Source: an uncultured virus (IMG/VR IMGVR_UViG_3300005083_000004) (lineage: Duplodnaviria; Heunggongvirae; Uroviricota; Caudoviricetes). Taken from it: 64,000 bases of DNA. The translations under genes were made by a program, and so were the position numbers. Shown here in pieces: positions 5,058 through 64,000 of this stretch (positions are counted from its first letter, which is position 1; the number at the start of each line of letters is the position of its first letter). Where the stretch lies: IMG/VR virus record IMGVR_UViG_3300005083_000004; one strand, given 5' to 3'. The notes below the pieces were generated by a model that made no database searches, was not told where the DNA came from, and saw nothing but the letters and a program-made list of their open reading frames with translations.

Positions 5058-6383
5058 ATGGACCATTATTTTGAAAAAGATTATGATAAATTGAGATCGA
5101 CTAAATTTGTTATGAGAGATATATATCACTTTAAATGTGAATATTGTGGAGCTGATTGTAGAACTGAAGGAAGTAATTTAAGTAGATCTTTAAAATCAAA
5201 TATTAATAAAAAATTTCTATGTAAAGCATGTAACTCAACTGAAGCAAATAAAAATCGATGGAGTAATCCAGATAACAAGAAAAAACAATCTGAAAAACTA
5301 AAAAGTTATATTAATGGATTAACTGAAGAAGAGAAAAAACAAAGGTTAGATAAACTTGTTGATGGATTACACAATATGACTGATGAACAAAAAGCACTTC
5401 GATCAATTCAAAATTCTAATTCAGCAAAAAAGTTATATGAAAAATATGATAAAGAAGAATTAAATCAAAGACAACGAGAGAGATATCAATCTCTCTCACA
5501 ATTAGAAAAAGATAAAATTAGACAACGAAGTATTGATCAGTGGAATGATTCAGAATTAAGAAAACGGCAATCTGAAAATAGGAAACGATATTGGGAAAAT
5601 ATCACTTTAGAACAATTACAATCATTAGAAAATAAACGTATTGAATTTTATAAAAATCGATCACCAGAAGAGAAACAAGCTTTCTCAGATTTTATGTCAA
5701 ATCTTGGTAAACAATTATGGATTGATAAAACTCCAGAACNNNNNNNNNNNNNNNNNNNNNNNNNNNNNNNNNNNNNNNNNNNNNNNNNNNNNNNNNNNNN
5801 NNNNNNNNNNNNNNNNNNNNNNNNNNNNNNNNNNNNNNNNNNNNNNNNNNNNNNNNNNNNNNNNNNNNNNNNNNNNNNNNNNNNNNNNNNNNNNNNNNNN
5901 NNNNNNNNNNNNATATGGGTTAATAAACCAGAAGAAGAACTTCATATAATCAGACAACATCAATGTTTGAGTCGATTAGGAAGAATTGATAATGGTCATA
6001 AAGATATTAAATATAAATGGTTGATACAGTGGTTGGATGATAACAAAATTAAATATAGAACTGAGGAACCATATCTCAACGTAGAAATGATCAGAGATGA
6101 TGATGGATATATAATTCCTCCAAAACCATGGGACTTTGGAATATATAATAAAGATAATAAACTTGTATTACTGATTGATGTTGACGGAACTATTCATAAT
6201 GGGTCAATTGATAAATTATTATCAGAACGAGGATTAATGACAATACAAGAACGTGACAATAAACGAGTTATTCAACATGATCCAGATATTCCATATATCA
6301 TATTATATTATGATGATAATATGGAATATAACATCCAATCTGTTAAAGACTGTATTAAAGTAATAGAAAGAGTAATTTTATAA
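5058..6383 (+). CDS. Homing-endonuclease-like protein: Zn finger, helical repeats and C-terminal PD-(D/E)XK/Vsr-like nuclease; spans N gap 5740-5912
   Basis: CEYC/CKAC, repeated 'W.N...E..K..S' helices, WDFGIY..LLIDVDG..H..RDNKR. Confidence 0.65.
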   Translation: MDHYFEKDYDKLRSTKFVMRDIYHFKCEYCGADCRTEGSNLSRSLKSNINKKFLCKACNSTEANKNRWSNPDNKKKQSEKLKSYINGLTEEEKKQRLDKLVDGLHNMTDEQKALRSIQNSNSAKKLYEKYDKEELNQRQRERYQSLSQLEKDKIRQRSIDQWNDSELRKRQSENRKRYWENITLEQLQSLENKRIEFYKNRSPEEKQAFSDFMSNLGKQLWIDKTPEXXXXXXXXXXXXXXXXXXXXXXXXXXXXXXXXXXXXXXXXXXXXXXXXXXXXXXXXXXIWVNKPEEELHIIRQHQCLSRLGRIDNGHKDIKYKWLIQWLDDNKIKYRTEEPYLNVEMIRDDDGYIIPPKPWDFGIYNKDNKLVLLIDVDGTIHNGSIDKLLSERGLMTIQERDNKRVIQHDPDIPYIILYYDDNMEYNIQSVKDCIKVIERVIL

Positions 6384-8652: not shown

Positions 8653-9177
8653 ATGGTAAAATCAAAATTAAATCAATTAACAGCAATATATGATTCATAT
8701 ATCGAATCAATTGATTTGGAAAAAGATATAGATATTAATAATGATGATATTGAAACAGATGTAATTATCATATCAGATGATGATTTTGATAATAACAATG
8801 ATTTCAATCAAAACGATATTGATATTATTGAATCGTTATTGAAATCTGAAAATGATGCATATTCAGATTATACCAATGCAATATCTGAATGTCAGGATGA
8901 CAGAATTCTAAAAGTGTTGGAGGATATTAGAACTGAAGAATTGAAACATCTTCAACAACTAGAATATCTTAAATCCAAAATTACTGGTAAAAAATATGAT
9001 GCTGTTTCATTAAAAATAAAAGATGAAACAGATGAATTGATTGCATCAGTGGTTCCATCTGAAGAAGTCAATAATGAAAATGAATTAGATGAAAAAGATG
9101 AAAATCCATTAAAAGTCACAGATGATGAAAATGATGAAGAAATAGAAGAATCTGCATTGTATTCTTTATATTTTTAA
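8653..9177 (+). CDS. Acidic protein with ferritin/rubrerythrin-like helix pair
   Basis: LLKSENDAYSDY...IRTEELKH (E..ExxH pattern). Confidence 0.55.
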   Translation: MVKSKLNQLTAIYDSYIESIDLEKDIDINNDDIETDVIIISDDDFDNNNDFNQNDIDIIESLLKSENDAYSDYTNAISECQDDRILKVLEDIRTEELKHLQQLEYLKSKITGKKYDAVSLKIKDETDELIASVVPSEEVNNENELDEKDENPLKVTDDENDEEIEESALYSLYF

Positions 9178-15511: not shown

Positions 15512-18073
15512 ATGATTAAAGTTATTAAACGAACAAAAGAAATTGTACTATTTAACCCAGAAAAAATTATTAATGCGATCGCAAAAGCATTCAATAGTTT
15601 AAATATCCCAGATAGTGAGCGTCCAACAATAATAGTTAATGAATTTCAATCAGATCCATATTGTCAAATTCAGTTATATAAAAATTCAATTGAAAATATT
15701 AAATGTATTAATATACCATTTGAATATATTGATGATACAGGTTATATTTATTTAGATATTGAAAGTATTCAAGATAGTGTTGAAGATTTATTATTACAAT
15801 ATGATTATAAAATCGGAAAAGAGTATATAAAATATCGATTTAAGAGACAATTAGCTCGTGAATCGAATAAGACATTAATGAATAAGATTCATGAAATGAG
15901 TGTAGCAAAAGATTATTCAAATACAGATAATCTTAATGGAAATATTTCAGATATATATACAATGGGATGGATGTTAAATGTTGGATCTTTGACTTCAAAA
16001 CAATATTTTCTTAATACAATAAAAAAGGAATATTCACAAGCTCATTTGGATGGAAAATTTCATATTCATGATTTAGATTTTTATTCTATGACTACGACAT
16101 GTTGTCTAATAGATATTGAACGATTATTAAAATCTAGATCAACTGATGAAGAATTAGAAAAATATTTCCAATCAATGTTAATAAAATATAAAGATGATCC
16201 ATTGATGGTTGAGAAAGCTGGAAAAGATACTGAGATATATGAACGAAAAAATTCTGGATTTTATACAGGGCATGGAACAATACGCCCAGCAAAATCATTA
16301 CGAACTGCAATGATGTTAACATGTATAATTTTTCAATCCAACCAAAATGATCAATATGGAGGACAAGGAATTCCGGCTATAGACTGGATGCTTGCTGATT
16401 TTGTAAAAGATGATTTTATATCATTATTAAAAGATGAATTGGCATCTTATTTAATATATGGAACAGATATTAAAGGTAATATGATTGGTGATGCAATTAA
16501 TCAAATCAATTTTGATGATTTAGATGTATTGAAACATTATAGGAATTATTCTGAAACAGAAATAATATCAAATATTATCACAGTAATTAAGGAAACATTA
16601 CAAAAATATATTAATGATTATATTGAAAACTTGGCGCTTGAGATAATAATTGATTCGGTTTTATATAAATTGGATAATAATATAAAACAATCATGTGAAG
16701 GGTTCGTTCATAATCTTTGCACTATGAATTCAAGAGCAGGTTCGCAGGTACCATTCACATCAATTAATTATGGAACTGATACATCTTTCTTTGGTAGAAA
16801 AATAATAAAAGGTTTATTGAATGCATGTATTGCAGGAATTGGGTATGGTGAAACAGCAATATTTCCAATTCAAATATTTAAGGTAAAAAAAGGAGTGAAT
16901 AGTGAAAAAGAAGATCCAAATTATGATCTATTTAAATTGGCATTATATAGTACAGGAAAAAGATTATTTCCAAATTATGTATTTTTAGATGCTCCATTTA
17001 ATCTTCAATATTATAAAAAGAATAATCCTAGAACTGAAATTGCATCTATGGGATGTCGTACTCGTGTAGCTTCAAATGTTAATGGTGAAGAAACCCCATA
17101 TGGAAGAGGAAACTTATCTTTCATCACATTAAATTTACCTCAATATGCAATAGAGTCATTATCAGCGTCTCAACCATTAAACAAATTTTATGAGATACTA
17201 GATCAATACTTAAAATTAGCAGCAAGACAATTAATAGATAGACTATTTGAACAAGGTCAACGTAAGAAAATAAATTATCCAATGTTAATGGGAAATGGTG
17301 TTTGGATGGATTCAGATAAATTAAAAAATGATGATAATGTATATGAAGTTTTAAAACATGGAACATTATCTATTGGATTTATTGGATTAGCAGAAACGTT
17401 ATGGATTTTAACAGGTAAACATCATGGAGAATCAGATGATTCACAAAAATTAGGATTAGAAATTATCAAAAGAATTAGAGATTTTTGTGATAATAAAACA
17501 AAAGAAAAATCATTAAATTTCTCATGTTTCTCAACTCCAGCTGAGTCAACATGTTATCGTTTATATAATATCGATAGAAAGAAATTTGGGAATGTTATAT
17601 TACCAAACGGAAGACCTTTATATGAAGAAGGAAATCCAATGACACATGGTTATTATACTAATTCAAATCATATTCCTGTATGGTATAAAATATCAATAAA
17701 AAATAAAATTGATATAGAAGCTCCATATCATGTATTAACAAATGCAGGAAATATTTGTTATGTTGAAATTGATGGTGATGCATCACAAAACATTGATGCA
17801 TTAGAAAAGATAATAAAATATATGCAATATGCTGGTATTGGATATGGATCTATAAATGTTCCAGTAGATTATCATTACAGATGTGGATATACAGGATTAA
17901 TTAATTTAGAATGCCCACATTGTGGAGATCGCTTCGATGAATATTATAACAACGATGTTAAAAGGATTCGTCGAATTACAGGATATTTAGTTCAATCATT
18001 AGATCGATTTAATGATGGAAAAAAATTAGAAGAAAAGGATCGTATAAAACATAATAAAGTTAAAAATAGTTAA
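15512..18073 (+). CDS. nrdD: Anaerobic (class III) ribonucleoside-triphosphate reductase
   Basis: ATP cone VIKR..FN.EKI, HIHDLD, QNDQYGGQ, SRAGSQVPF, MGCRT, GRGNLSF, TPAES, YYTNS.H, RRITGYL glycyl-radical motif. Confidence 0.97.
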   Translation: MIKVIKRTKEIVLFNPEKIINAIAKAFNSLNIPDSERPTIIVNEFQSDPYCQIQLYKNSIENIKCINIPFEYIDDTGYIYLDIESIQDSVEDLLLQYDYKIGKEYIKYRFKRQLARESNKTLMNKIHEMSVAKDYSNTDNLNGNISDIYTMGWMLNVGSLTSKQYFLNTIKKEYSQAHLDGKFHIHDLDFYSMTTTCCLIDIERLLKSRSTDEELEKYFQSMLIKYKDDPLMVEKAGKDTEIYERKNSGFYTGHGTIRPAKSLRTAMMLTCIIFQSNQNDQYGGQGIPAIDWMLADFVKDDFISLLKDELASYLIYGTDIKGNMIGDAINQINFDDLDVLKHYRNYSETEIISNIITVIKETLQKYINDYIENLALEIIIDSVLYKLDNNIKQSCEGFVHNLCTMNSRAGSQVPFTSINYGTDTSFFGRKIIKGLLNACIAGIGYGETAIFPIQIFKVKKGVNSEKEDPNYDLFKLALYSTGKRLFPNYVFLDAPFNLQYYKKNNPRTEIASMGCRTRVASNVNGEETPYGRGNLSFITLNLPQYAIESLSASQPLNKFYEILDQYLKLAARQLIDRLFEQGQRKKINYPMLMGNGVWMDSDKLKNDDNVYEVLKHGTLSIGFIGLAETLWILTGKHHGESDDSQKLGLEIIKRIRDFCDNKTKEKSLNFSCFSTPAESTCYRLYNIDRKKFGNVILPNGRPLYEEGNPMTHGYYTNSNHIPVWYKISIKNKIDIEAPYHVLTNAGNICYVEIDGDASQNIDALEKIIKYMQYAGIGYGSINVPVDYHYRCGYTGLINLECPHCGDRFDEYYNNDVKRIRRITGYLVQSLDRFNDGKKLEEKDRIKHNKVKNS

Positions 18074-18076
18074 GAT

Positions 18077-18111
18077 AAAAAAAGAAAGAGCTTTAAAGCT
18101 CTTTCTTTTTT
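18077..18111. terminator. Terminator after nrdD
   Basis: aaaaaagaaagagctt-ta-aagctctttctttttt. Confidence 0.8.
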
Positions 18112-18128
18112 GCATATTTGGAAATTTC

Positions 18129-18147
18129 AATTATATATTATATATAT
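18129..18147 (+). promoter_or_regulatory. Putative early promoter driving the ncRNA
   Basis: aattatatattatatatatgaata is identical to the element at 56600. Confidence 0.6.
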
Positions 18148-18406
18148 GAATACAAGAATGGAATAGTTGCAAAACTGTGTCCATTTATTACATACCTATC
18201 TGAAAAGTTATATCTAAAGTCGTGTAGATATAAAATGAGTAAGATTGATCTAACGTGCTGATTGTGACGGCGTTAGAAATAGGAAGAGGTTATAGTAATA
18301 AAAACTTTCGTCGATATAAAGTTGCTGATTGTGACGGGCTTTATATTTGATGGTTACATAAACAAAGTTTAAGTGTATTCCACGACAGGATCCCACCCCT
18401 GGCGGC
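18148..18406 (+). ncRNA. Novel multi-stem structured RNA with twin identical loops
   Basis: Nested complementary stems with G-U pairs, GCAA tetraloop, tgctgattgtgacgg twice in hairpin loops, no credible ORF, flanked by promoter motif and terminator. Confidence 0.7.
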
Positions 18407-18440
18407 AAAAAAAGAAGAGCCGATCACTCTTCTTTTTTTT
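18407..18440. terminator. Bidirectional terminator
   Basis: aaaaaaagaagag-ccgatca-ctcttctttttttt. Confidence 0.75.
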
Positions 18441-18453
18441 AATAATTTTTAGA

Positions 18454-18888
18454 TTATATTTTAAACTTACGACGTTTAATAAGTTTACGAGCAGCATTTG
18501 TTGCTGGTGCCGAATATTTCTTCATAATACGTTGTTTAAGTGTACGACCCAACTTTTTATTTTTTGCATATGCTGCAGCAAGAGGATCATTTCGACGTTT
18601 AGCTAAAATGATTGAACAAATGCCTACTAACTGATTTAAAATTGTTGTACGATCAAAACGTACAATATTCTTTTCAGTAAAAAAATCAGGATTCTCTTTA
18701 ATTAAATCATTTGCTACAGCATCAATTTCAGACCCTATATCATTTCGATCAATAATATTTTCAACTTCGTCAACTACATTTTCTATTTCATCAATTGCAG
18801 TAATATTATCATCAAATGTTTCATTGACGGATTCTTGATAATTTTCAACTGATCCAAGAATCCGATCTAATAAATTAACAAATCTCAT
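18454..18888 (-). CDS. Putative virion/head protein, acidic N-half and basic C-half
   Basis: AAGGAG SD; LAKRRNDPL..Y..K pattern. Confidence 0.5.
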   Translation of the reverse strand: MRFVNLLDRILGSVENYQESVNETFDDNITAIDEIENVVDEVENIIDRNDIGSEIDAVANDLIKENPDFFTEKNIVRFDRTTILNQLVGICSIILAKRRNDPLAAAYAKNKKLGRTLKQRIMKKYSAPATNAARKLIKRRKFKI

Positions 18889-18924
18889 ATTAAGAATCTC
18901 CTTTAAATTAATAAACTTATATAA

Positions 18925-19677
18925 TTATTTACGTGTTTTGTTCAGCAAAATTAAATAGTTATTATTTACCCATTTATTTATATTTGATTTACCTATCAAT
19001 GATTTATTTTTATTAATTTCATAAATTCTATAAGGTCTATTTAACATCCATTTATATACTATATTACCATCATCAAACGATCTTAAATCAGGATCTAATT
19101 TAACATAATCTCCTACTTTAAGATTATTTGTATTATATAAATTTACTTCACCTTTTGTTTCATCAAATTCAACATCGACATTTTCAAAATTTAAAAATGT
19201 ATATTTTTTAGCAAATGAAATTATTGGTGTAAGTATATTATTCTGAGTTTCATTATATTTTCCAATCAATCGATCATAATGTATTATATGATAATTATCT
19301 GGTAAAAATAAACCATTATTCTTATAAATAAATGATATTGATTCACTAATTAATTTATACAATGATTCAAATATTAAATTCTTATTTAATTCATATTTAG
19401 ATATTGCATATAATATATATATTGATTGACGATGTAATTGTGTATTCTCTACAATCTGATTATTCCATGATAATGATGTCGGTATGATACTAATATATGG
19501 ACATTCTTTATCATATGATAATAATTCCTGAACTTCACCATCTGAATCAATAGCTCGATGAGGATAATAATCACTTTTTTTCTCATTAGAAATTCCTAAT
19601 GTTCTCATCGTTAATTCAGTTTTAATATTATTGCAATCTTGGATGATAATAAAATTGTGTTTATTTGGAGTTATCAT
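18925..19677 (-). CDS. Degenerate amidase_2-like domain plus C-terminal SH3-like cell-wall-binding domain
   Basis: FIIIQD..YPHRAIDSDGEVQE resembles amidase 'IIIH..HY.I..DG.I'; LKVGDYVKL..W..Y.I. Confidence 0.4.
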   Translation of the reverse strand: MITPNKHNFIIIQDCNNIKTELTMRTLGISNEKKSDYYPHRAIDSDGEVQELLSYDKECPYISIIPTSLSWNNQIVENTQLHRQSIYILYAISKYELNKNLIFESLYKLISESISFIYKNNGLFLPDNYHIIHYDRLIGKYNETQNNILTPIISFAKKYTFLNFENVDVEFDETKGEVNLYNTNNLKVGDYVKLDPDLRSFDDGNIVYKWMLNRPYRIYEINKNKSLIGKSNINKWVNNNYLILLNKTRK

Positions 19678-19686
19678 ATTTTTCTC

Positions 19687-20088
19687 CTATACAACAATAT
19701 CTTCATTTTTATATATCCGTCCCATAATATCGTCAACTTTATTTGGATCAGGAATATATACAATATCTCCAACAAAATCTATATCAGTTTTACATTTATT
19801 CAATAATAATAGAACTAACCATAAATCAATTGTTTTATATAATTGAAATGATAATTTTTTTGGTTGCATATGAAATGCAACATCGAATTTATATTTGATT
19901 TGAATATCTTTAAACATTTCGATATAATATGGAAATAAATTATATAATGGAAATTTGAATATATCTGTTGGACGTTTTGAATTTATACATATATAAGATG
20001 AATATCCTAAATCCACCTTATATCGAGAATTAAATTGATTATTTATAAACTCTAAAATTGTTCCTTCATTCATAATATTTATCCTCAT
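19687..20088 (-). CDS. Baseplate wedge protein (T4 gp53/LysM-like)
   Basis: QPKKLSFQLYKTIDLWLVLLLLN..VYIP pattern. Confidence 0.65.
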   Translation of the reverse strand: MRINIMNEGTILEFINNQFNSRYKVDLGYSSYICINSKRPTDIFKFPLYNLFPYYIEMFKDIQIKYKFDVAFHMQPKKLSFQLYKTIDLWLVLLLLNKCKTDIDFVGDIVYIPDPNKVDDIMGRIYKNEDIVV

Positions 20089-20837
20089 TAATAATATAAT
20101 ATTTGTTCCAATGGTGATTCTGTTTCAGGTATATTTTCTTTAGTTCTTATGATACCTTGATTTATCATTTGACCGAATACTTCAAAAGAAAGCGCAGCAT
20201 AAGTATTTAATTTTGGTGCTAAATTTCTAACAGATAACATTACATAATCATATGGAGTTAATGAATTTGATTTACCATATACTTGACCAAATTTAGATGT
20301 ATTATCTTTTTTATATCTACATGCTATTGCGATAACCGATTCCAATATAAAACTTGGTAATTGAAAATTTACTCCATTCATTTTTAAATTCATTTGCCAA
20401 ATTTTTATTATTTCATCATATGGTATTAAATTTGATGGAAGTTTTCCCATAAGAATATAGTTAATAAATATTTCACAGTTTAAACTATCTTTGATCACCA
20501 TTGATTTACATATCGGCGATTTATCTCCAAATATCATTACTTCACAATTTTCATCTTCAGATCCAAGATTTATTGTATCTGTATATATATCAGTAATATT
20601 AATATTTATCAATGTTGGAATTTTTAATAGTTTAAGAGTATTATTTTTTGAATAAGGAATAATTCCCATTAGACGATATACAATTCCTTGATCTTCAAAT
20701 CCAATCATACTTTTATATGATAATGGAATATAAAGTTTGATTTCACCGTTACAACATATATTTCCATCTATTTCAATAAAATCTTTATTATCATCAATAG
20801 ATTCAATTAGATAAGATTCATTTTTTAAATCCGACAT
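20088..20837 (-). CDS. Putative RNA polymerase beta' C-terminal fragment (probably virion RNAP)
   Basis: ILESVIA..CR and YAALSFE resemble beta' 'HIEVIV.QM' and 'SAASFQE'; ends SPLEQIL. Confidence 0.5.
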   Translation of the reverse strand: MSDLKNESYLIESIDDNKDFIEIDGNICCNGEIKLYIPLSYKSMIGFEDQGIVYRLMGIIPYSKNNTLKLLKIPTLININITDIYTDTINLGSEDENCEVMIFGDKSPICKSMVIKDSLNCEIFINYILMGKLPSNLIPYDEIIKIWQMNLKMNGVNFQLPSFILESVIAIACRYKKDNTSKFGQVYGKSNSLTPYDYVMLSVRNLAPKLNTYAALSFEVFGQMINQGIIRTKENIPETESPLEQILYY

Positions 20838-20918
20838 AATATATATATTCTCCTTATATTCTATAATGTTATCTCAAAAGTTTTTGCATGTTTTTAAAAA
20901 AATTATATATGAATAAAT

Positions 20919-20949
20919 AAAAAAAGAAGGTTTTAAACCTTCTTTTTTT
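20919..20949. terminator. Terminator
   Basis: aaaaaaagaaggttt-t-aaaccttcttttttt. Confidence 0.7.
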
Positions 20950-20958
20950 CACAATCGA

Positions 20959-22410
20959 TTATTTTAAAAACACGTTTAAATTTAATAATGAAAATGGATT
21001 GATCTTAATAGCAACTTTATTATTTATTGCATTGATTCCCATGTAATATAATGGATCATAATTTTCAAATACTTTCTGTAATTCTGGAAATGGTATAGAA
21101 AATAAATTTAATGTATCTCCATCGAAATCGGCATGTAATCCTGGTAATGGTGAATATCCTAATGCCATGCAATAGTTATTTGGATCTTTATTTATTCTAC
21201 GAATATTCATGAGTTGAAATGATTCGTAATTTAATGATGGATTTCGATTTATTAATATTTTTGGATGATATTTTTCCAATATTCGATCACATAATTCATA
21301 TAAGTATTCATTACCATCATTAGAATTAAGCTGAAGATAATTATATGCATTAAATAACGGAACTTTTTTATCATTCATTATTTCTTTAATCAACCAATTT
21401 TTATAAAACACAGTTGCTAACGGAAATCCAATATCTATTTCATTACATTGTAAAGTTGGATCCAGAGTAATAACATTTCTTGATGAATAATTATAATTGC
21501 CTCCTAAAATTGATGATCGAATATGACCATTTTTTCCTTTAATTAGTTTAAATACTTCATCCCAAATTTTATTGATATGATTTTGAATCGAATATAAAGT
21601 GATTACGACTTCTGATAATGTAAATTTAGGTAGTAATTCAATTGATGAACAAATCGGATTAATATGTTTATCAATGGATGTAAATGAGTATGCTCCATTA
21701 TTTATAGAAATTGGTCGTAAGCATGTACTATAAACTGGAAAACATGATGTCCATATATATTCTTTATTATTGATCAAATTCTCAACTCTTTCAGGATTCT
21801 TTTTATTTCCAAATGCTGTTATAATTTCATCAAAATTTTCATAAAATTGAATTAATCCAATATTATAATATTGATTCATTTTTTTAAGTTGACGACGACT
21901 TTTAATAACGATTTCTTCATGAATATCATGTGTATTTCCATCTTGATCATACATATTATCATATCTAATTATATTATCTAAGTTTTTTGAACCAATGACA
22001 GATTCTAATATTTTATAATACCTTGGATGAATTACTTTATATGGGCCCCAATATAACCACCCTGTTTTTGTAATATCAAATGCTGAATATTCAACTTTAG
22101 TATGACATAATGGACATTCTTCACCTTCAAACATTGCTCCAATTATTTCACCACATTCACAGTGATATCTTTCCATAAATGAAAAATCATCCCCGTATCC
22201 ACTACCAAATTTTATTGACCGAGGACCATCAATATTTTTAATTTTATTATATACATCATTAAATGCTCTTTTATTTATCATAAATCCTTTTCCGGTCATT
22301 AGATCAAAATTCATTTGAGCATCACAATTGATTGGTCTAAGAATCACAGATTTTTTAATGTTTTCATTATCATCAAATAAATCCTCTAATTTTTGTATTT
22401 TTCTTGACAT
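20959..22410 (-). CDS. rpoC: Multisubunit RNA polymerase beta' N-terminal subunit with catalytic loop
   Basis: CECG..CPLC Zn site, KGKNGHIR, SSRNVI, NRNPSL, HADFDGD. Confidence 0.92.
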   Translation of the reverse strand: MSRKIQKLEDLFDDNENIKKSVILRPINCDAQMNFDLMTGKGFMINKRAFNDVYNKIKNIDGPRSIKFGSGYGDDFSFMERYHCECGEIIGAMFEGEECPLCHTKVEYSAFDITKTGWLYWGPYKVIHPRYYKILESVIGSKNLDNIIRYDNMYDQDGNTHDIHEEIVIKSRRQLKKMNQYYNIGLIQFYENFDEIITAFGNKKNPERVENLINNKEYIWTSCFPVYSTCLRPISINNGAYSFTSIDKHINPICSSIELLPKFTLSEVVITLYSIQNHINKIWDEVFKLIKGKNGHIRSSILGGNYNYSSRNVITLDPTLQCNEIDIGFPLATVFYKNWLIKEIMNDKKVPLFNAYNYLQLNSNDGNEYLYELCDRILEKYHPKILINRNPSLNYESFQLMNIRRINKDPNNYCMALGYSPLPGLHADFDGDTLNLFSIPFPELQKVFENYDPLYYMGINAINNKVAIKINPFSLLNLNVFLK

Positions 22411-40210: not shown

Positions 40211-40699
40211 TTAATTATTGCCTTTATTTTTATGATTTTTTTTAAAAGTGTCATATTTATCAGTATTAGAAATACTTTCTGTTTGAATAGTATCAGAAGT
40301 TTCATTAGTTGTAATATTTTTATCAGTATTAGAAATACTTTCTGTTTGAATAGTATCAGTTTCATTTTTTTGTGGTTTTTCAGGAGTTGCAGATTTAATT
40401 ACTTTTGAAGCATCTTTATTATTAACAGATTTAATTTTTGTATTGGCATAAGGAACCAATATCTTTTTATAATTCTGATAAGTAATCTGAGTTTCTTCAC
40501 CATTATTATTAACAATATTAAAAGTAATTCTCTGTGGATGTCTTAAAAATGATTCAAATATTTCTACAACAATTTTTGCGTCAAGATCAATTTTTGCTGG
40601 ACTAAGAATTCCTAGTTTAGGTATAATTCCGCTCCCACGAAAATGAATTCTTATTTTTCCTTCAGGTATATTACCTGTTGCATTAACTGCAGTTTGCAT
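40211..40699 (-). CDS. Hypothetical protein with duplicated C-terminal peptide
   Basis: AGGAG SD; DTIQTESISNTDK twice. Confidence 0.6.
   Translation of the reverse strand: MQTAVNATGNIPEGKIRIHFRGSGIIPKLGILSPAKIDLDAKIVVEIFESFLRHPQRITFNIVNNNGEETQITYQNYKKILVPYANTKIKSVNNKDASKVIKSATPEKPQKNETDTIQTESISNTDKNITTNETSDTIQTESISNTDKYDTFKKNHKNKGNN
40256..40359. repeat. 41-bp exact direct repeat, period 63
   Basis: tttatcagtattagaaatactttctgtttgaatagtatcag at 40256 and 40319. Confidence 0.9.
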
Positions 40700-44066: not shown

Positions 44067-44777
44067 ATGAAATATAATCCGAATAATGGTAAATATTTAT
44101 TATTTCAAGGATGTGAAAATGTAATATTTGAGTTTAATGATATAATTGCTTGTCCTGGATATGAGTTTATGAAAGATGTATCAAATAATGATTGTCATGG
44201 TAGTGTATTAAATGAATTATTTCATTTAACAAACTATAAAAATATTGATGTTGATAATTGGTATATTAATAGAGAATTTAATAATCCATTGTCCCAAATA
44301 AACTGGGACAATGGATTATTATTAACATCTAAAGCTTGTGATTTAATATATAATAATGAAATATTAAGTATTTATAAATACTATAAATATTATCCTAAAA
44401 ATATTATATTTAAAATTATTAATACAATGAATCAAATTGATGTATCATCAAAAATCATTGTATGGTCAAAATATTATAATTCTCATATTAATAGTTTTAT
44501 TAAAGATTATTTATCATCATATGGATGTATTTATTATTATGGCAATTTTCCTGATATTATCAAATCATTGAGTTTATATTCAACTTTTGTATTATCAAGC
44601 ATAGATTCAATTAAATCATTCACAGAATTAGAATATAATAAATGTAGACAATTAACAATAATTGACTCAAATTATTTACTAAGATCGAATGTGTATAAGA
44701 ATCTTATAAAACAACTTGTCAAATTACCACAGATAGGATCAATCAAATTATCAACCATATTAGAAAACAATATATGA
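44067..44777 (+). CDS. Hypothetical protein, possibly degenerate HAD fold (ORF track start 43968)
   Basis: NVIFEFNDII resembles HAD motif I. Confidence 0.4.
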   Translation: MKYNPNNGKYLLFQGCENVIFEFNDIIACPGYEFMKDVSNNDCHGSVLNELFHLTNYKNIDVDNWYINREFNNPLSQINWDNGLLLTSKACDLIYNNEILSIYKYYKYYPKNIIFKIINTMNQIDVSSKIIVWSKYYNSHINSFIKDYLSSYGCIYYYGNFPDIIKSLSLYSTFVLSSIDSIKSFTELEYNKCRQLTIIDSNYLLRSNVYKNLIKQLVKLPQIGSIKLSTILENNI

Positions 44778-46480
44778 AAAAAATAGCGAGGTCATTAATG
44801 CAAAAGAATAAGTTACCTGACAAATATGGATATCAATCGCATAAATTTCCACACGGGTTTGAAAATTACTTTTATAAATGGACTCCATTTGAAGAAGATA
44901 TTTTATTCGTTCCCATGAAGAATAAAGTTACTATTAGTTTCGATAAGTTACTCGGTAAACCAGAATTTCAAGTATTAAATAATTTTATAATTACAAAACA
45001 TAGTTATTCGAATAACCTTGATATTATATGTGAGGATTTAAATTTCTTTTCAGCATTATATGATAGAGATCATGAATTAGTATTAGGATTATTCCGTCTC
45101 AAATTTTTAATTGATAATCAAAATAAATCGGTTGATAATTTCGATAAATTTAAATCGATAGTATATGAAACTGTGGTTTCTGAAAATATTAAAAAAAAGA
45201 TAAGTTTAATGGTTGAAGAGAATTATGCACATGATATTTCAATTGATATGAAATCTTTAACAATTGGAAAATCTCGTAATATTTTAGAATTTACAAATGA
45301 TCATGTTAAATGTATCCTAAAATCTGCATATGTAATTAAAATATTAGCTATAATAACATCTCATTATTTGGCTATCAACGGTATAAAATCAACATCAACA
45401 TCATATAAATTATATTTTGATGATATGTATATTGCAGCATTAAATTTATTTTCAGATAAATATGATATTTATACAAAAACGTTGATGTATATAGAATCAA
45501 AAATTAAAGATTCCATGAATCACAATAAACCGATACATAGTCAGAGAGAAATCAATGGTGAGGATATTGTAACATGCACTCATTTAATTTTTAGAAAATA
45601 TTTACTAACTGATTCATTTTTAAAGTTTAGATTACAAAAAACATGGAATAAGGAATTGGGACGTCCAACGGAATCGATATTATCATATTATAAAGCAATT
45701 CCAAATTCTCATCTAGAATGGATATTAAAACAACAATTCAAATTTACAATTGTGGAAACGGTTAATGATATTGGCGATGAAGGAATAAATAAAATAGATC
45801 GTTTAAAAATACAATTATCAAATATAGATGAAGAAATAAATATAATGATTGAAGTTAATATTAATGAAAGAATTAAATATATTACAGAAATATTTGCTCC
45901 AATATTACCTGATGAAAAAGTAAATTGGTATATTAAACATCTTAAAGTTATGCCAATTCATATTGTTCTTATTGAACAATATTTCAAATCTTATTTTGGT
46001 AATCCTAAAGCAATTCGATTTATTAATAATAGACAATCAATTCAATTATTATTAATACTTGAATATATTTTGATGAAAGATGTTATTGTTAAAAATAAAA
46101 TGTCTATTGATGATTTAGCTGATTTACCTATATTACCATTCATTATTACAGCCAATATTAAAGATAATTTAATAACTAAAAAAATTAATAAAGCTAATAT
46201 CGATTTATTATTCAATAATAGTTATTATCGTAAAATAATTAATGATCGATATAGTTGGATTGAATCAATATCTACAGATTGTGTTAAAAATACAATCCTC
46301 AATTTTATAACACCGACATATGAAATTTGTTCATATGATCATCCAGAATTAAATGGCACAATTATCGAATATGATAAAAAACATTTAATAGATGAATTAG
46401 TACAGTTTCTATTAAATATACCATCTGAAAATGAATGTTATTATGATGAAAAATGCTTATTTGATAAATATAGATGTTAA
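44774..46480 (+). CDS. Large helical protein; candidate sigma-like non-virion RNAP specificity subunit
   Basis: Size and all-alpha character comparable to phiKZ gp68/AR9 gp226; no decisive motif seen. Confidence 0.3.
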   Translation: MKKIARSLMQKNKLPDKYGYQSHKFPHGFENYFYKWTPFEEDILFVPMKNKVTISFDKLLGKPEFQVLNNFIITKHSYSNNLDIICEDLNFFSALYDRDHELVLGLFRLKFLIDNQNKSVDNFDKFKSIVYETVVSENIKKKISLMVEENYAHDISIDMKSLTIGKSRNILEFTNDHVKCILKSAYVIKILAIITSHYLAINGIKSTSTSYKLYFDDMYIAALNLFSDKYDIYTKTLMYIESKIKDSMNHNKPIHSQREINGEDIVTCTHLIFRKYLLTDSFLKFRLQKTWNKELGRPTESILSYYKAIPNSHLEWILKQQFKFTIVETVNDIGDEGINKIDRLKIQLSNIDEEINIMIEVNINERIKYITEIFAPILPDEKVNWYIKHLKVMPIHIVLIEQYFKSYFGNPKAIRFINNRQSIQLLLILEYILMKDVIVKNKMSIDDLADLPILPFIITANIKDNLITKKINKANIDLLFNNSYYRKIINDRYSWIESISTDCVKNTILNFITPTYEICSYDHPELNGTIIEYDKKHLIDELVQFLLNIPSENECYYDEKCLFDKYRC

Positions 46481-46524: not shown

Positions 46525-47625
46525 TTATATTTGTAAATAGTCATACCATGCTCTTAAGAGAATTATATTTTCTTCCGATAATTCTCCTTGTTCAATTATT
46601 TCATCTAATAATCCATTTAATTCTTTAATGTATTTTTCAATTTCTTTTTTATAAGATTTATATTTTGGATCTTTCAAATCCAATTCTAATTGTTTTATTA
46701 TCATTTTCATTCTATGAATTGTTGATGAATGAACATCATTATTTTCAATATTTGATAAATAGCAAAGATTATGATGTAATTCATCAATTAAATTAAATAT
46801 ATTATCGGTTTCATGTTGAGATTTTATTCTCTTAAATAAAGGATCATAAAAAGTTAAATATTTAATTAAGTCTTTTCCATATCCATATGCAACTGGTAAC
46901 ATATCAGCATAGAATTCATGTTTTTGTGCATTTTGTAAATTACCATAACCAATTTTTGTAATTTCATTAGATCCAGTATCACCAACAGCTTTACGAAGAG
47001 ATTTCCCTGACAATAACTCTCCTAGTATTTTAATGAATAACCCAAGTTTACTTGTAATTTGCCCTTTGGATTTTTTACTGGCACAATCTTTAATGATTGT
47101 GATTAAATTTGTTGATTTTTTTATTTCCATTAATTGAAATTCTTCATCAAATGCATGTCCAATTTCATGTAACAATGAAGCCATTTGCATTTTTATGGTA
47201 ATATCAGGATTAAATTCATATGGTATACTAATATTAGCTTTAATTGAATTTGATACATCTTTTATCCCTTTTAACGATGACTCAATTGTTGCTTTATATC
47301 CTTTATTATATGATATATATGATCGATGTCCAATAAAAATGTATTTTACATTAATAAACATATATGGTCCCATTCTACTATATATAGGAATTTCTATATT
47401 TATATCTCTAAATCCAAATACTTTTTTAATTAGATCTTCAATTTGTTTTATTCTTGGATCAGCAAAATTATACTTATTATTCTTTATAAATTTTAACGTA
47501 TTACCATTAGATTCTTTCCATAAATTTCTAATATCGGCCATTATATCATTTAAAAGTTTTTCAATATTATCAAATTCTTTAGGTCGTTGATAATATGTTT
47601 CAGTAATTAATTCGGAGTATGACAT
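46525..47625 (-). CDS. Zincin metallopeptidase-like protein (ORF track start 47685)
   Basis: LLHEIGH, EFYAD, YGYG, DVH....R (M48-like arrangement). Confidence 0.75.
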   Translation of the reverse strand: MSYSELITETYYQRPKEFDNIEKLLNDIMADIRNLWKESNGNTLKFIKNNKYNFADPRIKQIEDLIKKVFGFRDINIEIPIYSRMGPYMFINVKYIFIGHRSYISYNKGYKATIESSLKGIKDVSNSIKANISIPYEFNPDITIKMQMASLLHEIGHAFDEEFQLMEIKKSTNLITIIKDCASKKSKGQITSKLGLFIKILGELLSGKSLRKAVGDTGSNEITKIGYGNLQNAQKHEFYADMLPVAYGYGKDLIKYLTFYDPLFKRIKSQHETDNIFNLIDELHHNLCYLSNIENNDVHSSTIHRMKMIIKQLELDLKDPKYKSYKKEIEKYIKELNGLLDEIIEQGELSEENIILLRAWYDYLQI

Positions 47626-55622: not shown

Positions 55623-55919
55623 TTATTCTTCTGTAATAGGTCCAAATCTATTAGAAAATTCAGATATAGCTTTAACTTTAAATACGACTGGTTTTCCGGC
55701 TAAATTTTTTTCATGATAATTATTTGGAAATGTTACATTAATCTCAAATTCTTTATCATATTCTTTTCCTATCATTGCTTCTTCAAATCCTGGAATAAAT
55801 TTTTTACTTCCAATTTGATATTGATATGATTTTGCTGTTCCTCCCGGAAACTGGAATCCATCCTGAGTGAATCCTGCAAAATCCATTGTTACAATGTCAT
55901 ACATTTTAATTATTTTCAT
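55623..55919 (-). CDS. Stand-alone trigger-factor-type FKBP peptidyl-prolyl isomerase domain (ORF track start 55934)
   Basis: DIVTMDF.G..DG..F.GG......IGS..FIPGFEE...G....INVTFP.NYH...LAGKPVVFKVK; GAGGAG SD. Confidence 0.88.
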   Translation of the reverse strand: MKIIKMYDIVTMDFAGFTQDGFQFPGGTAKSYQYQIGSKKFIPGFEEAMIGKEYDKEFEINVTFPNNYHEKNLAGKPVVFKVKAISEFSNRFGPITEE

Positions 55920-56541
55920 TATTATTCTCCTCAATACTAAGTAAACTAATATAGTTTGTTATAACATATGCCAATAAATACATAGGGGTTATAGTTACAT
56001 TATTAAACATATATATGATCCTTTGTTTATAATCATATATATATCTAGATATATATATGATAATATCAGATATATTAGCACAAATGATTTCTTTATTGTA
56101 ATACTGATCAATGATTGGTAATATACATAATATTCCTGGAGGAATAAGTCCAATATCTAATTTATTTTTTGTTTGTTTTGTTGATTGATCGGTAAATTCA
56201 CTAAAATCAATTTTTGATTGATTCAATGATACAATATGTCCAAGTGTTAAATAAGCACTGAAACATTTATCAATGTTATTAATTTGATCATTATCAATTA
56301 AAAATGCAATATTCGTTGCCATATGGAATAAGTGATTTAATCCACTCTCATTATCATTTATTTCACCTGATAAATGTTTCAACCAATGTCGTTCCATTGC
56401 ATTAGTTAAATTATATAAATCGATCGGATCTGTTAAAGTTTTCCAATTATCTCGATCATACTTTTTAATACCAAATTCTCTAACTTTAATTATTCCTTTG
56501 ATCATTGGTTCAATATTTACGTTTAATTTGGAAGTATTCAT
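55906..56541 (-). CDS. dATP/dGTP diphosphohydrolase-like (DUF5664) protein (ORF track start 56586)
   Basis: FGIKKYDRDNWK, AMERH, D.ESGLNHL.H.A.N..FL; AAGGAG SD. Confidence 0.75.
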   Translation of the reverse strand: MNTSKLNVNIEPMIKGIIKVREFGIKKYDRDNWKTLTDPIDLYNLTNAMERHWLKHLSGEINDNESGLNHLFHMATNIAFLIDNDQINNIDKCFSAYLTLGHIVSLNQSKIDFSEFTDQSTKQTKNKLDIGLIPPGILCILPIIDQYYNKEIICANISDIIIYISRYIYDYKQRIIYMFNNVTITPMYLLAYVITNYISLLSIEENNNENN

Positions 56542-56599
56542 GTATCTCTCCTTATGTTTAAATTTATTAGTCAAATTGTTTTGCATATATTAATAAATT

Positions 56600-56712
56600 A
56601 ATTATATATTATATATATGAATAAAGAAAAAGATACATTCTTTATTTATTATCTTTTACATGGTGTAAGAGATAAAAAGTTTTGTATCATCCCTACTAAA
56701 TAGGGAAAGGAG
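56600..56712 (+). promoter_or_regulatory. Early-type promoter plus structured 5' leader shared with groEL
   Basis: Matches 71-140; three hairpins before the SD. Confidence 0.6.
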
Positions 56713-57529: not shown

Positions 57530-58897
57530 TTATTTACGAATACTCATTGGTAGCAAATATGAATCAGTAATCATATCTGTTTTTAAATTCATTCCTAGCA
57601 TAAAAGTATTAGCAAGTGTTAATGTTTGTTTATTAGTTTTATCATAATCCATATCTTCTAATTGCGTATAACCTTTCTCTGCAATATCTTCAAACATTTT
57701 TGATTTCATTACGTTATCATCAGAACGAGGACCATGTAATTCTCTTAAAATATCATTGGCACCTAAACTAACTAACATTGTTGCTTCAACGCTACTATCT
57801 TGAGCATTTTTATCTGAATCGACAACTTGACCAGTCATATGATTTCTTTTATTAATTGAAATACTCATCCCATTCTTTTTTTCTACTAATTGTTGAGTTC
57901 TTTTACAGTTTAAATATCCAACTAATACTTTAGTTGGGGATTTAACAACATTATTTAAATCCATCGTTTGATGTGGTAAATATATATGTTCCCAAAGTTC
58001 AATTCCCAATACTTTTGATGCATTCATAGCATTTTCAATTAACAATTGACGCTCACCTTCAATAATTTCAACACCAAAATATTCTTTATCATTATTAAAA
58101 AAATCTCTAAAAAATGAATTAAATTGAGAATTTGACATAGATTCAAAAAGATTAAAATATTTTTTTGTATTTGCTCCAGTTGGATCTAATGCATTAAATA
58201 CATCATATACAAGCTTTTCCATTTTATTACGTTTATTTTTTGATGTTGTTGTAGCTTCATAAACAGGAATTTCATTTTTATTTTGTACATCTACTATTAA
58301 ATCTATTCTCTCACCTTGATCAAATATTTTGTGAATAAATTCATCAGCATTAACTCCTGATTCGATCTCACGGTATTTAATTAATACATATGAAGTATTA
58401 TTATGAAAATTAGTAAATTTTTTAATAACATCTGTTAATAATTCTAAATTAGAATCATATTCATGAATACCTTTATAATTCTCCCATGCATTTTCTAACC
58501 AAATATTTTTACGATAAACAATAAAAGTATGTGTATTTCCTATTTGAGCATTACCATCATCGTCATTAACAAATAATCCAATAAAATATGATTCACATGA
58601 ATAAATTGAATCTTTAATTATATCAATAAAAAATCTTTCGAATTCAACCTGATCCCAACTTATTCCAATTCTAGATTCACACATTTCATGAAATGATTGA
58701 AGTTTATATTCTGTCAATAATGATGTTTGCATATTGGGTTCAATTTCGAACTCACCGTCATTTTTCATAAAACCATATACAAAATTATCATTCATCCACT
58801 TCATGAATTCTTCTATACTATATGATGCATCAGGTTCTCCTTCTTTTGAAATATAATTGACTTCAAAAGAAAATTCATTTTCAGCAGTATCATTCAT
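57530..58897 (-). CDS. RNA polymerase beta C-terminal fragment fused to N-terminal transglutaminase-like domain
   Basis: VGYLNCKRTQQLVEKK and SSVEATML.SLGA...LREL..PRSDD parallel beta 'GYMY.LKL.HLV.DK' and 'GEMEVWAL.AYGA...LQE....KSDD'; N-half GISWDQVEF..THTF..WLE.AW. Confidence 0.65.
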   Translation of the reverse strand: MNDTAENEFSFEVNYISKEGEPDASYSIEEFMKWMNDNFVYGFMKNDGEFEIEPNMQTSLLTEYKLQSFHEMCESRIGISWDQVEFERFFIDIIKDSIYSCESYFIGLFVNDDDGNAQIGNTHTFIVYRKNIWLENAWENYKGIHEYDSNLELLTDVIKKFTNFHNNTSYVLIKYREIESGVNADEFIHKIFDQGERIDLIVDVQNKNEIPVYEATTTSKNKRNKMEKLVYDVFNALDPTGANTKKYFNLFESMSNSQFNSFFRDFFNNDKEYFGVEIIEGERQLLIENAMNASKVLGIELWEHIYLPHQTMDLNNVVKSPTKVLVGYLNCKRTQQLVEKKNGMSISINKRNHMTGQVVDSDKNAQDSSVEATMLVSLGANDILRELHGPRSDDNVMKSKMFEDIAEKGYTQLEDMDYDKTNKQTLTLANTFMLGMNLKTDMITDSYLLPMSIRK

Positions 58898-61101: not shown

Positions 61102-64000
61102 ATGGCTATTAATGTAAATGACAAATTTGTCAAACGTGATGATCTTTATCGAATTAATTCTGCAGCCAAGACATACACAAATAATATTACTGGTAATCCA
61201 GCCGATTTATTGACATTATCTAAGTCGACACTGGTCGGAAGCATTAATGAAAATAAAAATAATATTGATGCTTTATCTGCAAATACAACAGAAACTTTGA
61301 AAGATTATGTCAAAAAAGAAAATTTTGATGATGATGGTAAATATACCAAAAACATTACTATTGGTCAGGTATCAGGTTCACCTGTAACAATTAAAACTAC
61401 ACAACATGATGTCATTAATACACCTGGTACAGAAAGTTATAAAGATAATCGATTGACAAGCTCAAATAATTTGTTAACAATTAATTTGAAGACAACATTA
61501 AATCCATTAATTGATGATGTTGAATTTGGATTAGATTTATCTGGATATAGGACATCAGATGAACAAGATGTTATTGATGAGACATATCAACCATTAAATG
61601 CTACATTAACTTCATTAAGTGATGTAACAAGTGAAGGTGTTGTTGTAAAGAATGGACCAAAATCAATTGAAGCGCGGAAGATAGATATAGATGATGTTAA
61701 ACCTGATTCTCCATTGAATGCTGCTGACGCCGCATTTATTGGGAATGATGGTGCAATATCATTAGTAACTGGAAAACCGATTAAAGATGCTAGTAGTGGT
61801 GATCCGTTACTTCAAAACAATGGAACAGTAACTGTTGGTAATAGTAATCAATCTGCTATTATAACAAGTAAAGCAAATGGTGAAGGAAAACCTGGTATTT
61901 ATGCTGGGGTAAATGCAGAAGACAATCGTATTCCAACATTAGCAGAAGTTAATACATTAATTGAAACCGCCATTGTTGAAGATTCAGATTATGAAGGAAC
62001 ATACACTTATTTTACTCAAGAAGATACAGCTGCAGCTGCCCAAAATGGAATTACAAGTCAAAGTGTTCCATTGACTTATGGTAATGCAACAGGTATAGCA
62101 TTCGGATTTGATGATCGCAAGATCATGACTGCACAATATTCGACTACAACTGGAACTTGGAGTTCATGGACTGAAATAGTTGATGTATTTACAAATGGTT
62201 CATGGATTTATTTCCAAGATTATATTCATACAAATTTCCCTGAACAGCAATCAGGTAAAGCAGTTTGGACAAAATTGACATCTACGGATCCTGGTCAATT
62301 TGATGTAATTCCTGATAAGATTGTTCAACTTGAACATGTTGCCCCTAATGCATCAAGTAAAACAGATACAGGAACTGACTCTGCAATTCTTTATCAAGTA
62401 TTGGGATCAAGGGATGATCTTCTTACAATAGATAAAACAAATTTGGTTGCGGCTATAAATGAAGTCAATAATAATAATGCAACTCTCAATAATTATGTAA
62501 CAACAGAAGTTAATAGACTTGATGGTAGAATCGACACAGAAATTAGTGATAGAACAGCAAGTGATGAATCATTGAATGATCGAATTAACATTGAAATTAC
62601 AACAGTAAATGCTATTATTAATGCATTGGATAGTAAAGTTGAAGATTATAATGATGCAAGAGAAGCTGATATATCAATATTAGATGAAAGACTTGATGTT
62701 GTTGAAGATGATNNNNNNNNNNNNNNNNNNNNNNNNNNNNNNNNNNNNNNNNNNNNNNNNNNNNNNNNNNNNNNNNNNNNNNNNNNNNNNNNNNNNNNNN
62801 NNNNNNNNNNNNNNATAACAAAAGCAGAATCTGATATTGCCAATATTAATACTAAAAATTCTGAACAGGATGCAGAAATCGATACTAAAGTCGATCGTGC
62901 AAATTTTGATAAAAATGGTTGGTATGTTGATAAGGTAGTTCCGGCAGAAATTTCAACAGGTGGTGTCAAATTATCGGTTGAATCATCTAATGCATTAGAT
63001 GATCCTCAGAATGCAACTCATACAAAGAATTTTGATTTCCGTCTGAAGTCTACAAATAGTATTCTTGGAATTGCTCTTGATACATTAGCAGATAATCCGA
63101 ATGTTAATGATATCTTATTCACTGTTGATACAAGCAGTTATCGTACTGCTGCAGATCAAGATATTATTGATGCTACTAAACAGCCATTGAATAGTAAACT
63201 AACTGATATCTCTAATGCAGATGCAAATGGTGTATTGACTGTTAAAACAACTGGAATAGTTGAATCTAGAAAAATTAATATTAATGATATTGCAGCTGAT
63301 TCACCTCTTCAATATGCTGATAATGCATTTGCATCGAATGATGGTTCAATCCAACTTGTAACAGGTAAAGCAATCAAGGATGCTTCAAGTGGAACAGATA
63401 TTCTTTCATTGTCTGGCAGTGTTAAGATTGGTAATACATCGAATACAACAGTAATTACGCCAAATTTAACACCTGAAGGATTCGCTGCAATTTATGCTTC
63501 AACTGCAGATGAAGATCATCGTATTCCTGTGAAATCGGAAATCTCAAATATGATTGCGCAAGCTATTGTTAATGATACTGACTATCAAGGAACAGTAACA
63601 TATTTTGCTCAAGAAGAAATTGAAACTGATGCTAAAGCTAAAATTGAATCATTGACTAATGTAGTTCTCGGTTCAACTGCAATTATATTTGGTATAGATA
63701 ATCGGGTAGCTATTCTTGGTACCTATGTTGGTGCATGGAATTGGGTTGAGTTACCGGATCCATCTTCACAAATGACATTTACAAATGGGCATTGGATATA
63801 TTTTTCTGATTATATTAACGATGATTATCCTTTAACTCAAACAGGTAAAGCTGTATATACAGCAGTCGGAGCTTCTTCAGCAGCATTTGAAGTTATCCCT
63901 GATAAGATTGTTGAGCTTGAACACCATGAACCTGATGCAACATCATCGCAAGAAAAAGGAACAGATGCAAAAGTTCTTTATGAAGTATTGGGATTAAGAA
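61102..64000 (+). CDS. Second giant modular fibre protein, paralogue of 49370; runs off window, frame kept across N gap 62713-62814
   Basis: AAGGAG SD; MAINVNDKFVK...; contains EARKI..AF.GNDG.I.L, DYEGT.TYF.QE, NG.W.YF.DYI, PDKIV.LEH..P modules. Confidence 0.85.
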   Translation, partial: MAINVNDKFVKRDDLYRINSAAKTYTNNITGNPADLLTLSKSTLVGSINENKNNIDALSANTTETLKDYVKKENFDDDGKYTKNITIGQVSGSPVTIKTTQHDVINTPGTESYKDNRLTSSNNLLTINLKTTLNPLIDDVEFGLDLSGYRTSDEQDVIDETYQPLNATLTSLSDVTSEGVVVKNGPKSIEARKIDIDDVKPDSPLNAADAAFIGNDGAISLVTGKPIKDASSGDPLLQNNGTVTVGNSNQSAIITSKANGEGKPGIYAGVNAEDNRIPTLAEVNTLIETAIVEDSDYEGTYTYFTQEDTAAAAQNGITSQSVPLTYGNATGIAFGFDDRKIMTAQYSTTTGTWSSWTEIVDVFTNGSWIYFQDYIHTNFPEQQSGKAVWTKLTSTDPGQFDVIPDKIVQLEHVAPNASSKTDTGTDSAILYQVLGSRDDLLTIDKTNLVAAINEVNNNNATLNNYVTTEVNRLDGRIDTEISDRTASDESLNDRINIEITTVNAIINALDSKVEDYNDAREADISILDERLDVVEDDXXXXXXXXXXXXXXXXXXXXXXXXXXXXXXXXXXITKAESDIANINTKNSEQDAEIDTKVDRANFDKNGWYVDKVVPAEISTGGVKLSVESSNALDDPQNATHTKNFDFRLKSTNSILGIALDTLADNPNVNDILFTVDTSSYRTAADQDIIDATKQPLNSKLTDISNADANGVLTVKTTGIVESRKININDIAADSPLQYADNAFASNDGSIQLVTGKAIKDASSGTDILSLSGSVKIGNTSNTTVITPNLTPEGFAAIYASTADEDHRIPVKSEISNMIAQAIVNDTDYQGTVTYFAQEEIETDAKAKIESLTNVVLGSTAIIFGIDNRVAILGTYVGAWNWVELPDPSSQMTFTNGHWIYFSDYINDDYPLTQTGKAVYTAVGASSAAFEVIPDKIVELEHHEPDATSSQEKGTDAKVLYEVLGLR

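Follow-up and report, generated by a model that had tools for sequence, protein, structure and literature searches.

Closest described systems

The Csr/Rsm sponge RNAs (CsrB, RsmY and RsmZ) carry multiple GGA motifs in their hairpin loops and titrate the protein CsrA. In Bacillus phages, the pRNA of phi29 is an early, structured packaging RNA, the function of which depends on two mutually complementary loops. What is known of jumbo phages that carry RNA polymerases of their own concerns, to our knowledge, chiefly the proteins, and descriptions of non-coding RNAs from these phages are few.

The unit reported here was found in a window of 64 kb (the whole stretch of DNA that was analysed), and it is most likely an early non-coding RNA gene, with a predicted plus-strand transcript of about 290 nt running from 18148 to about 18440. 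It resembles CsrB, RsmY and RsmZ in forming an independent RNA gene that has a promoter and a terminator to itself, in presenting a short motif in the loops of differing stems, and in its proposed action, the titration of a multivalent RNA-binding protein. It is unlike them in holding two copies of its motif rather than many, in the motif itself, which is a 15-mer, in having no link to CsrA, and in being phage-encoded and, by its promoter, early. GGA is absent from both conserved loops, the GGA triplets of the RNA being located in stems or junctions. The likeness to phi29 pRNA consists of a phage-encoded, structured and presumably early RNA with two key loops; in contrast to those of pRNA, the two loops have the same sequence and are not self-complementary, no similarity was found in sequence or through Rfam, and the phage is of a different type.

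The early promoter of phage AR9, used by the injected virion RNA polymerase, is given in the text of the AR9 report as AAATATATATTAT-(6N)-G+1 (PMC5312081), and the same report counts 292 ORFs and a single tRNA gene; neither "noncoding" nor "non-coding" is used in its main text (PMC5312081). The early units of AR9, as far as that report describes them, are matched here by a promoter agreeing at 12 of 13 positions, by a G at +1 and by split beta/beta' homologues in the same genome (PMC5312081); they differ in their product, which at the present locus is predicted to be an ORF-free structured RNA.

Phage genome and gene neighbourhood

The window has a GC content of 25.7%, represents about a third of an AT-rich phage contig of 180,450 bp, and contains two N stretches (5740–5912 and 62713–62814, 275 bases together). 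Split RNA polymerase beta/beta' homologues are encoded in it according to Pfam and PHROG: a beta' fragment on the minus strand at 20959–22410 (Pfam Rpb1 domain 2; PHROG RNA-polymerase family) and further proteins of PHROG RNA-polymerase families at 44774–46480 and 57530–58897. A GroEL-like protein, topoisomerase II, a family-B DNA polymerase, SbcCD and a NAD-ligase are also encoded. The beta' fragment shares just 26–28% identity with its counterparts in AR9-like and phiKZ-like phages (INPHARED), and its best identity among 5.8 billion proteins was no higher than 42%, values which indicate a deep, poorly sampled jumbo-phage lineage. Judged from its sequence, this is a novel AT-rich jumbo phage, which resembles AR9 and phiKZ in having multisubunit RNA polymerases that are split. 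A protein with a Coat_F spore-coat domain is encoded at 8653–9177 on the plus strand (PF07875, E 8e-7), which hints at a spore-forming Firmicute as the host.

The RNA unit is located between nrdD (15512–18073, plus strand; Pfam NRDD, E 8e-168) and a convergent minus-strand operon of the ORF list (18454–22410) that encodes virion proteins and the beta' fragment, and it faces the latter head-on.

Promoter, terminators and coding status

The first-pass annotation had described a non-coding, GC-enriched unit with an early-type promoter of its own, bounded by terminators on both sides, and each of these elements was recovered. Terminator T1 follows nrdD (18078–18111, plus strand) and is a true inverted repeat of 17 + 17 nt, 100% complementary and of the bidirectional type (A-run, palindrome, T-run); it was found as an inverted repeat and is absent from the list of the terminator scan. 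Terminator T2 (18407–18440, plus strand) is likewise a true inverted repeat, at 18407–18439, was listed by the scan with 13 pairs, a loop of 7 and a T-run, and is bidirectional, also closing the convergent minus-strand operon, the last ORF of which ends at 18454. The two terminators are alike, with arms at 18098–18113 and 18405–18420 that are 88% complementary, an observation that may bear on the origin of the unit. Between them, just two frames of 31 and 47 codons are present, neither plausible as a gene and both lacking a ribosome-binding site. The GC content of the unit is 35.4%, compared with a window mean of 25.7% (standard deviation 4.9), placing it at the 96th percentile of 257-nt windows; the other intergenic stretches are very AT-rich.

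The promoter motif ATTATATATTAT is located at 18130–18141 on the plus strand and is of the type read in AR9 by the virion RNA polymerase, early in infection. The window holds 7 exact copies of it, without exception on the plus strand, with 1.13 expected and none of 100 shuffles reaching 7. Six of the seven copies are intergenic by the ORF list; five of these precede plus-strand ORFs, at 205, 3122, 29563, 56719 and 59007, and the sixth precedes the RNA unit. Across eight aligned upstream regions, TTATATATTA showed no variation. At the RNA unit, positions 18129–18141 read AATTATATATTAT and are followed by ATATAT and then by G18148, so that the AR9-type consensus, the spacing of 6 nt and the G all occur there in order, as far as the AR9 rule is set out in the report cited above. 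A G at this spacing was present at 4 of the 6 copies inspected. Applying the AR9 rule, transcription is predicted to start at G18148 on the plus strand, and this G doubles as the first base of the stem that closes the predicted RNA.

In a relative, the 292-kb IMG/VR record G005, TTATATATTAT has 36 copies, of which 33 lie between genes; among them, an early-type promoter with its G (47000–47310, minus strand) heads a cluster of tRNA genes; promoters of this type therefore do drive non-coding RNA genes in the group. One downstream tRNA-like sequence of that cluster appears, on reading its sequence, to be interrupted by an ORF. The RNA unit of the window is very probably transcribed.

Two leaders that follow the same promoter motif in the window, at 84–140 and 56619–56705, share a hairpin AATAAAGAAAAAGATACWWTCTTTATT, with TATTATC directly after it and CCCTACTAAATARGGAA at a greater distance; the first leader precedes the GroEL-like gene and the second the 253-aa gene at 56719. 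This shared leader may be a regulatory or stabilising element of the 5' UTR. The same GAATA opens the RNA studied here.

A cis-acting transcription device was also considered, in which the structured early transcript, or transcription through it, would control the late operon that it faces head-on at 18454–22410. Such control might be exerted through antitermination at T2 that yields antisense RNA, through collision of polymerases or through insulation, much as put- or nut-like hairpins act on RNA polymerase. The convergence itself fits such a device, as does the location of two hairpins just ahead of T2, a terminator of modest strength with 3 G-C pairs. No likeness to put or nut RNAs was found, however, nor any Rfam match; a multibranch closure and identical long loops would be superfluous for insulation, and the proposal, which is pure inference, is considered very unlikely.

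Structure of the predicted RNA

The minimum free energy (MFE) structure and the partition function were computed on the predicted transcript 18148–18445. The RNA forms a closed multibranch core on the plus strand (18148–18380), with the closing stem GAAUACA/UGUAUUC at 18148–18154/18374–18380 (pair probability, P, 0.94). On the same strand it contains a 5' hairpin at 18156–18186 with a GCAA tetraloop at 18169–18172 (P 0.81 and 0.99), a hairpin UUAUAUCUA/UAGAUAUAA at 18208–18233 with arms at 18208–18216 and 18225–18233 (P 0.94), and a 3' hairpin CAGG/CCUG with a C-rich loop at 18383–18404 (P 0.99). Most of the helices previously drawn by eye were thus reproduced, but the helix aaacttt/aaagttt was weak (P 0.35) and the helix cctat/atagg gave way in the MFE structure to CCU/AGG at 18287–18289.

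The fold of the RNA as a whole is energetically unremarkable. The core at 18146–18404 on the plus strand gave −58.0 kcal/mol with a z-score of −1.83, and 8 of 200 shuffles folded equally well; on the minus strand, the core gave −46.6 kcal/mol with a z-score of −1.64. The better z-scores of a 306-nt stretch were due to the terminator. The fold holds 8 G.U pairs, of which the extension of the second twin hairpin contributes 3. The plus strand is favoured because of the order of promoter and terminator, the difference of 11 kcal/mol and these 8 G.U pairs.

The most distinctive part of the unit is a pair of hairpins with the same loop. The 15-mer TGCTGATTGTGACGG occurs in exactly two copies, at 18256–18270 and 18323–18337, and no further match with up to 3 mismatches was found on either strand of the 64 kb. 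Hairpin H1 (18249–18277, plus strand; 48.2 bits, P 0.89) has a 7-bp stem, tctaacg/cgttaga at 18249–18255/18271–18277, and the 15-nt loop UGCUGAUUGUGACGG (18256–18270). Hairpin H2 (18308–18353, plus strand; 46.9 bits) has a 9-bp stem, atataaagt/gctttatat at 18314–18322/18338–18346, a 7-bp extension with 3 G.U pairs, and the same 15-nt loop (18323–18337); its pair probability was 0.98 in the inner stem and 0.70 in the extension. The earlier report of an identical 15-mer on two differing stems was exact in its coordinates. When H1 and H2 were aligned on the loop, both partners had changed in 5 of the 7 stem pairs, yet all 14 cells paired, compared with 29–57% of cells in slid controls with the partner shifted by 1–3 columns. 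The compensatory counts, which come from two sequences only, were matched by 11 of 500 shuffles.

First-order Markov simulations of 64 kb yielded, in 8 of 200 runs, a closely spaced direct repeat that was 15 nt or longer and not of low complexity. In the real window, 7-bp stems enclosing a 15-nt loop have a frequency of 0.0025 per position, from which the chance that both copies of the 15-mer would be framed by stems is estimated at about 1e-7. A scan for the twin-loop architecture returned H1/H2 as the sole locus in the 64-kb window, and in a covariance model of H1 and H2 the next-best window match scored 15.2 bits (E 0.65). The hairpin motif is found nowhere else in the window, and titration of an operator is accordingly given no support, at least in this third of the genome. 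The two 15-mers are spaced by 67 nt, which is not a multiple of three, so they do not share one reading frame and do not represent a peptide repeat. The element is real, sharply defined and statistically non-random.

Direct repeats of 15 bp at this distance of 67 bp could also be read at the DNA level, as protein sites belonging to an origin, a partition or packaging site, or a regulatory region. Intergenic direct repeats between convergent units are typical of iteron-like sites, and the z-scores hardly separate the two strands. Nevertheless, each repeat is framed by an inverted repeat of its own, different from the other, which a protein binding duplex DNA would not need; the G.U pairs favour one strand, promoter and terminator are present in the correct order, and only two copies exist, with none elsewhere in the window. 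A DNA-level element is considered very unlikely.

As an RNA, the unit presents identical, long, G-rich loops on stems that are not identical, which indicates that the loop sequence is the part that is read. The loops could be read by a nucleic acid rather than by a protein, serving as seeds that pair with an mRNA of the host or the phage, or with a crRNA, tRNA or rRNA. Long, unstructured, G-rich loops on stable stems are a typical way of displaying a seed, and an exact complement of 8 nt for H1, or of 10 nt for H2 when extended into the stem, was located in 16S rRNA at GCCCGUCACA in two Bacilli-class genomes. This 16S match was not significant, however, with 5 of 60 shuffled loops pairing equally well; the best target in the 64 kb reached −18.8 kcal/mol, compared with about −27 for a perfect site, no target coincided with a ribosome-binding site in the 64 kb, and no complement with up to 3 mismatches was present in the window. 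A base-pairing regulator is therefore judged unlikely. Reading of the loops by a protein is preferred here, and the presence of two loop copies on one closed scaffold suggests a bivalent ligand.

Known families and searches for relatives

The unit had been described as belonging to no recognised RNA family, and a check against Rfam 15 bears this out, with 0 matches at gathering scores in the whole 64 kb. When region 18050–18500 was searched at E ≤ 10, 27 matches were obtained, all below gathering scores and nearly all on the terminators; the top one was ncr1015, with 34 bits of the 60 needed, on the minus strand at 18080–18190. The lone match touching H2 was DUF3800-I, with 16.6 bits compared with 44.2 (E 5.8). 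A tRNA or tmRNA was rejected, ARAGORN having found 0 genes in the window and 0 in 18000–18600 when relaxed to -ps80; at -ps70, only implausible intron-bearing calls were returned for that region. The unit is not a leader or riboswitch because no plus-strand gene follows it, and it lies opposite no gene, which discards an antisense RNA. Type III antitoxin RNAs (ToxI-like) consist of tandem near-identical repeats followed by a toxin gene. The present unit is not such an array because its repeat is only 15 nt long, with flanks that differ, and because it is followed by a terminator and convergent genes and by no toxin gene.

Relatives of the unit were sought in several collections. In distant mode, blastn of 18100–18460 against the INPHARED phages gave no match. 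The twin-motif pattern was found at 0 loci in IMG/VR, at 23 loci in JGI metagenomes, read as tandem coding repeats, satellites or CRISPR arrays, and at 8 loci in GTDB (one genome per species), all of them unrelated tandem repeats or CRISPR-type arrays. A single 14-mer was present at no fewer than 118 loci in IMG/VR, and among the matches listed none had an AT-rich hairpin context. A hairpin model (R1) run on 16 loci (301,426 bases) produced 3 matches with E values of 1.2–2.9, none convincing. Ten related jumbo-phage records were collected through the beta' protein (29–43% identity), and in these neither R1 (0 of 10 at E ≤ 1) nor a 170-nt model, R2 (0 of 10), found a match; R2 scored 215 bits on the window as a positive control. 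In blastn against 5 related records, the matches were of promoter and terminator size only. A literature search with the loop sequence returned unrelated papers only.

The neighbouring genes were also followed. Relatives of NrdD were found in record L001 (38% identity) and in MT837933 (43%), a GC-rich, bacterial-like contig in which no similar unit lies downstream of NrdD. G005 and G006 are the two complete relatives with both NrdD and a homologue of the 144-aa virion protein, but the two genes are not adjacent there, and no ORF-free unit follows either of them; the 144-aa neighbour protein itself has no relative in IMG/VR. The twin-loop architecture in G005 was matched strongly only by a coding repeat inside an ORF. 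Comparative support comes from the internal comparison of H1 with H2, that is, from two sequences. Within the collections searched, the unit is an orphan in a lineage without close sampled relatives, and it belongs to no known family.

An orphan of this kind might instead be a decaying or selfish cassette, in which an early promoter precedes the functionless remnant, whether transcribed or not, of a lost early gene or of an inserted moron. The absence of a homologue from every collection searched and the weak folding z-score are consistent with decay, and so are a weak colinear likeness to the promoter, 5' UTR and start, ATGAGTAAGWTTGAT, of a 230-aa gene of G005 and the 88% resemblance of T1 to T2, as if a cassette had been placed within a duplicated terminator. 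Even so, tblastn with the 230-aa protein of G005 detected no trace of coding sequence at the locus (best E 1.5), and a pseudogene of that gene was rejected on the same result. Decay would also leave unexplained the exact repetition of a G-rich 15-mer in an AT-rich genome, the perfect but different stems around both copies, the GC enrichment, and a closing stem that begins at the predicted +1. This explanation is regarded as rather unlikely, and the unit is considered to be probably functional as an RNA.

K-loop comparison and candidate partners

The K-loop is described as a K-turn in which a terminal loop takes the place of the C helix (PMC3884654, PMC1865073). The twin loops had been likened to the K-loop bound by L7Ae proteins, but the likeness proved to be loose. 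The loop reads CUGA-UU-GUGA-CG, with a D'-like CUGA and with GUGA corresponding to the start of the C'-like RUGAUGA; read in this way, the sequence permits tandem sheared pairs G5.A12 and A6.G11, a C3-G14 pair and a protruding U10. The C' box agrees at 5 of 7 positions only, the position 3b.3n would be C.U rather than U.U, and the loop is minimal, with only 4 nt bridging the G.A pairs. With the L7Ae-bound K-loops of archaeal box C'/D' and H/ACA RNAs, as those sources present them, the phage loops may share the tandem G.A/A.G pairs, the C-G pair and the protruding U; unlike the archaeal RNAs, the phage unit lacks boxes C and D, guide regions and ACA, and it belongs to a bacterial virus.

No Ribosomal_L7Ae domain was detected among the 52 window proteins scanned with Pfam, and no candidate RNA-binding partner was present among the proteins of the window (64 kb of 180,450 bp). 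The suggested involvement of the Firmicute K-turn binders YbxF and YlxQ was not supported either, and the literature weighs against it, for YlxQ by the title of Baird et al. 2012. That the twin loops represent genuine K-loops recognised by a protein of the L7Ae type is considered improbable. Still less probable is the fuller version of this proposal, in which K-loop-like modules would make the unit an early bivalent RNA that captures either a host protein of RNA binding or defence, dimeric or duplicated, or an L7Ae-like protein of the phage encoded in the remaining two thirds of its genome. If true, this would be the first case of a phage using a K-loop of the archaeal or eukaryotic type in an RNA decoy or RNP scaffold.

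Proposed action

The best explanation of the locus, to which we give somewhat less than an even chance, is a lineage-specific early non-coding RNA, the twin loops of which would make it a bivalent binder serving as a decoy, sponge or scaffold; both the binding mechanism and the partner in this proposal are inferred. The virion-type RNA polymerase of the phage would initiate at G18148, which lies 6 nt past the promoter motif, and would be released close to 18440 by the bidirectional terminator, so that the product would be about 290 nt long. This RNA would close on itself through its first seven bases, and its two hairpins with differing stems would display the same G-rich 15-nt loop as the working parts. 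A single kind of partner, most probably a protein of either the host or the phage, would be bound as a dimer or as two separate copies, and the RNA would act early in infection in one of the three capacities named. The specific step of protein binding through the twin loops is put forward tentatively, as a possible but rather doubtful mode of action.

If correct, this explanation would describe an early RNA made by a virion polymerase and showing one recognition motif twice, and it would provide a compact candidate for an RNA-based tool of takeover or counter-defence, founding a new RNA family. The present value of the unit is that of a well-defined target known from one sequence, with ends that are predicted exactly, a pair of 15-nt loops and a promoter rule that was carried over from AR9.

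Other features of the window

Several minor features were observed in the window. The minus-strand gene at 55906–56586 encodes the N-terminal domain of dATP/dGTP diphosphohydrolases (PF18909, E 3.5e-17) and is adjoined by a gene for an FKBP-type prolyl isomerase at 55623–55934 on the same strand. Diphosphohydrolases of the PF18909 type accompany base-modified phage genomes. A 63-nt tandem repeat at 40261–40347, located inside a 162-aa ORF on the minus strand (40211–40699), is one of three loci in the window with close direct repeats of at least 13 nt. Additionally, a tandem duplication of about 66 nt at 156–275 spans the ribosome-binding site and start codon of the GroEL-like gene, with AAGGAGGAAATACCTATGA present at 190 and 256 and the two ATGs, at 205 and 271, in frame.
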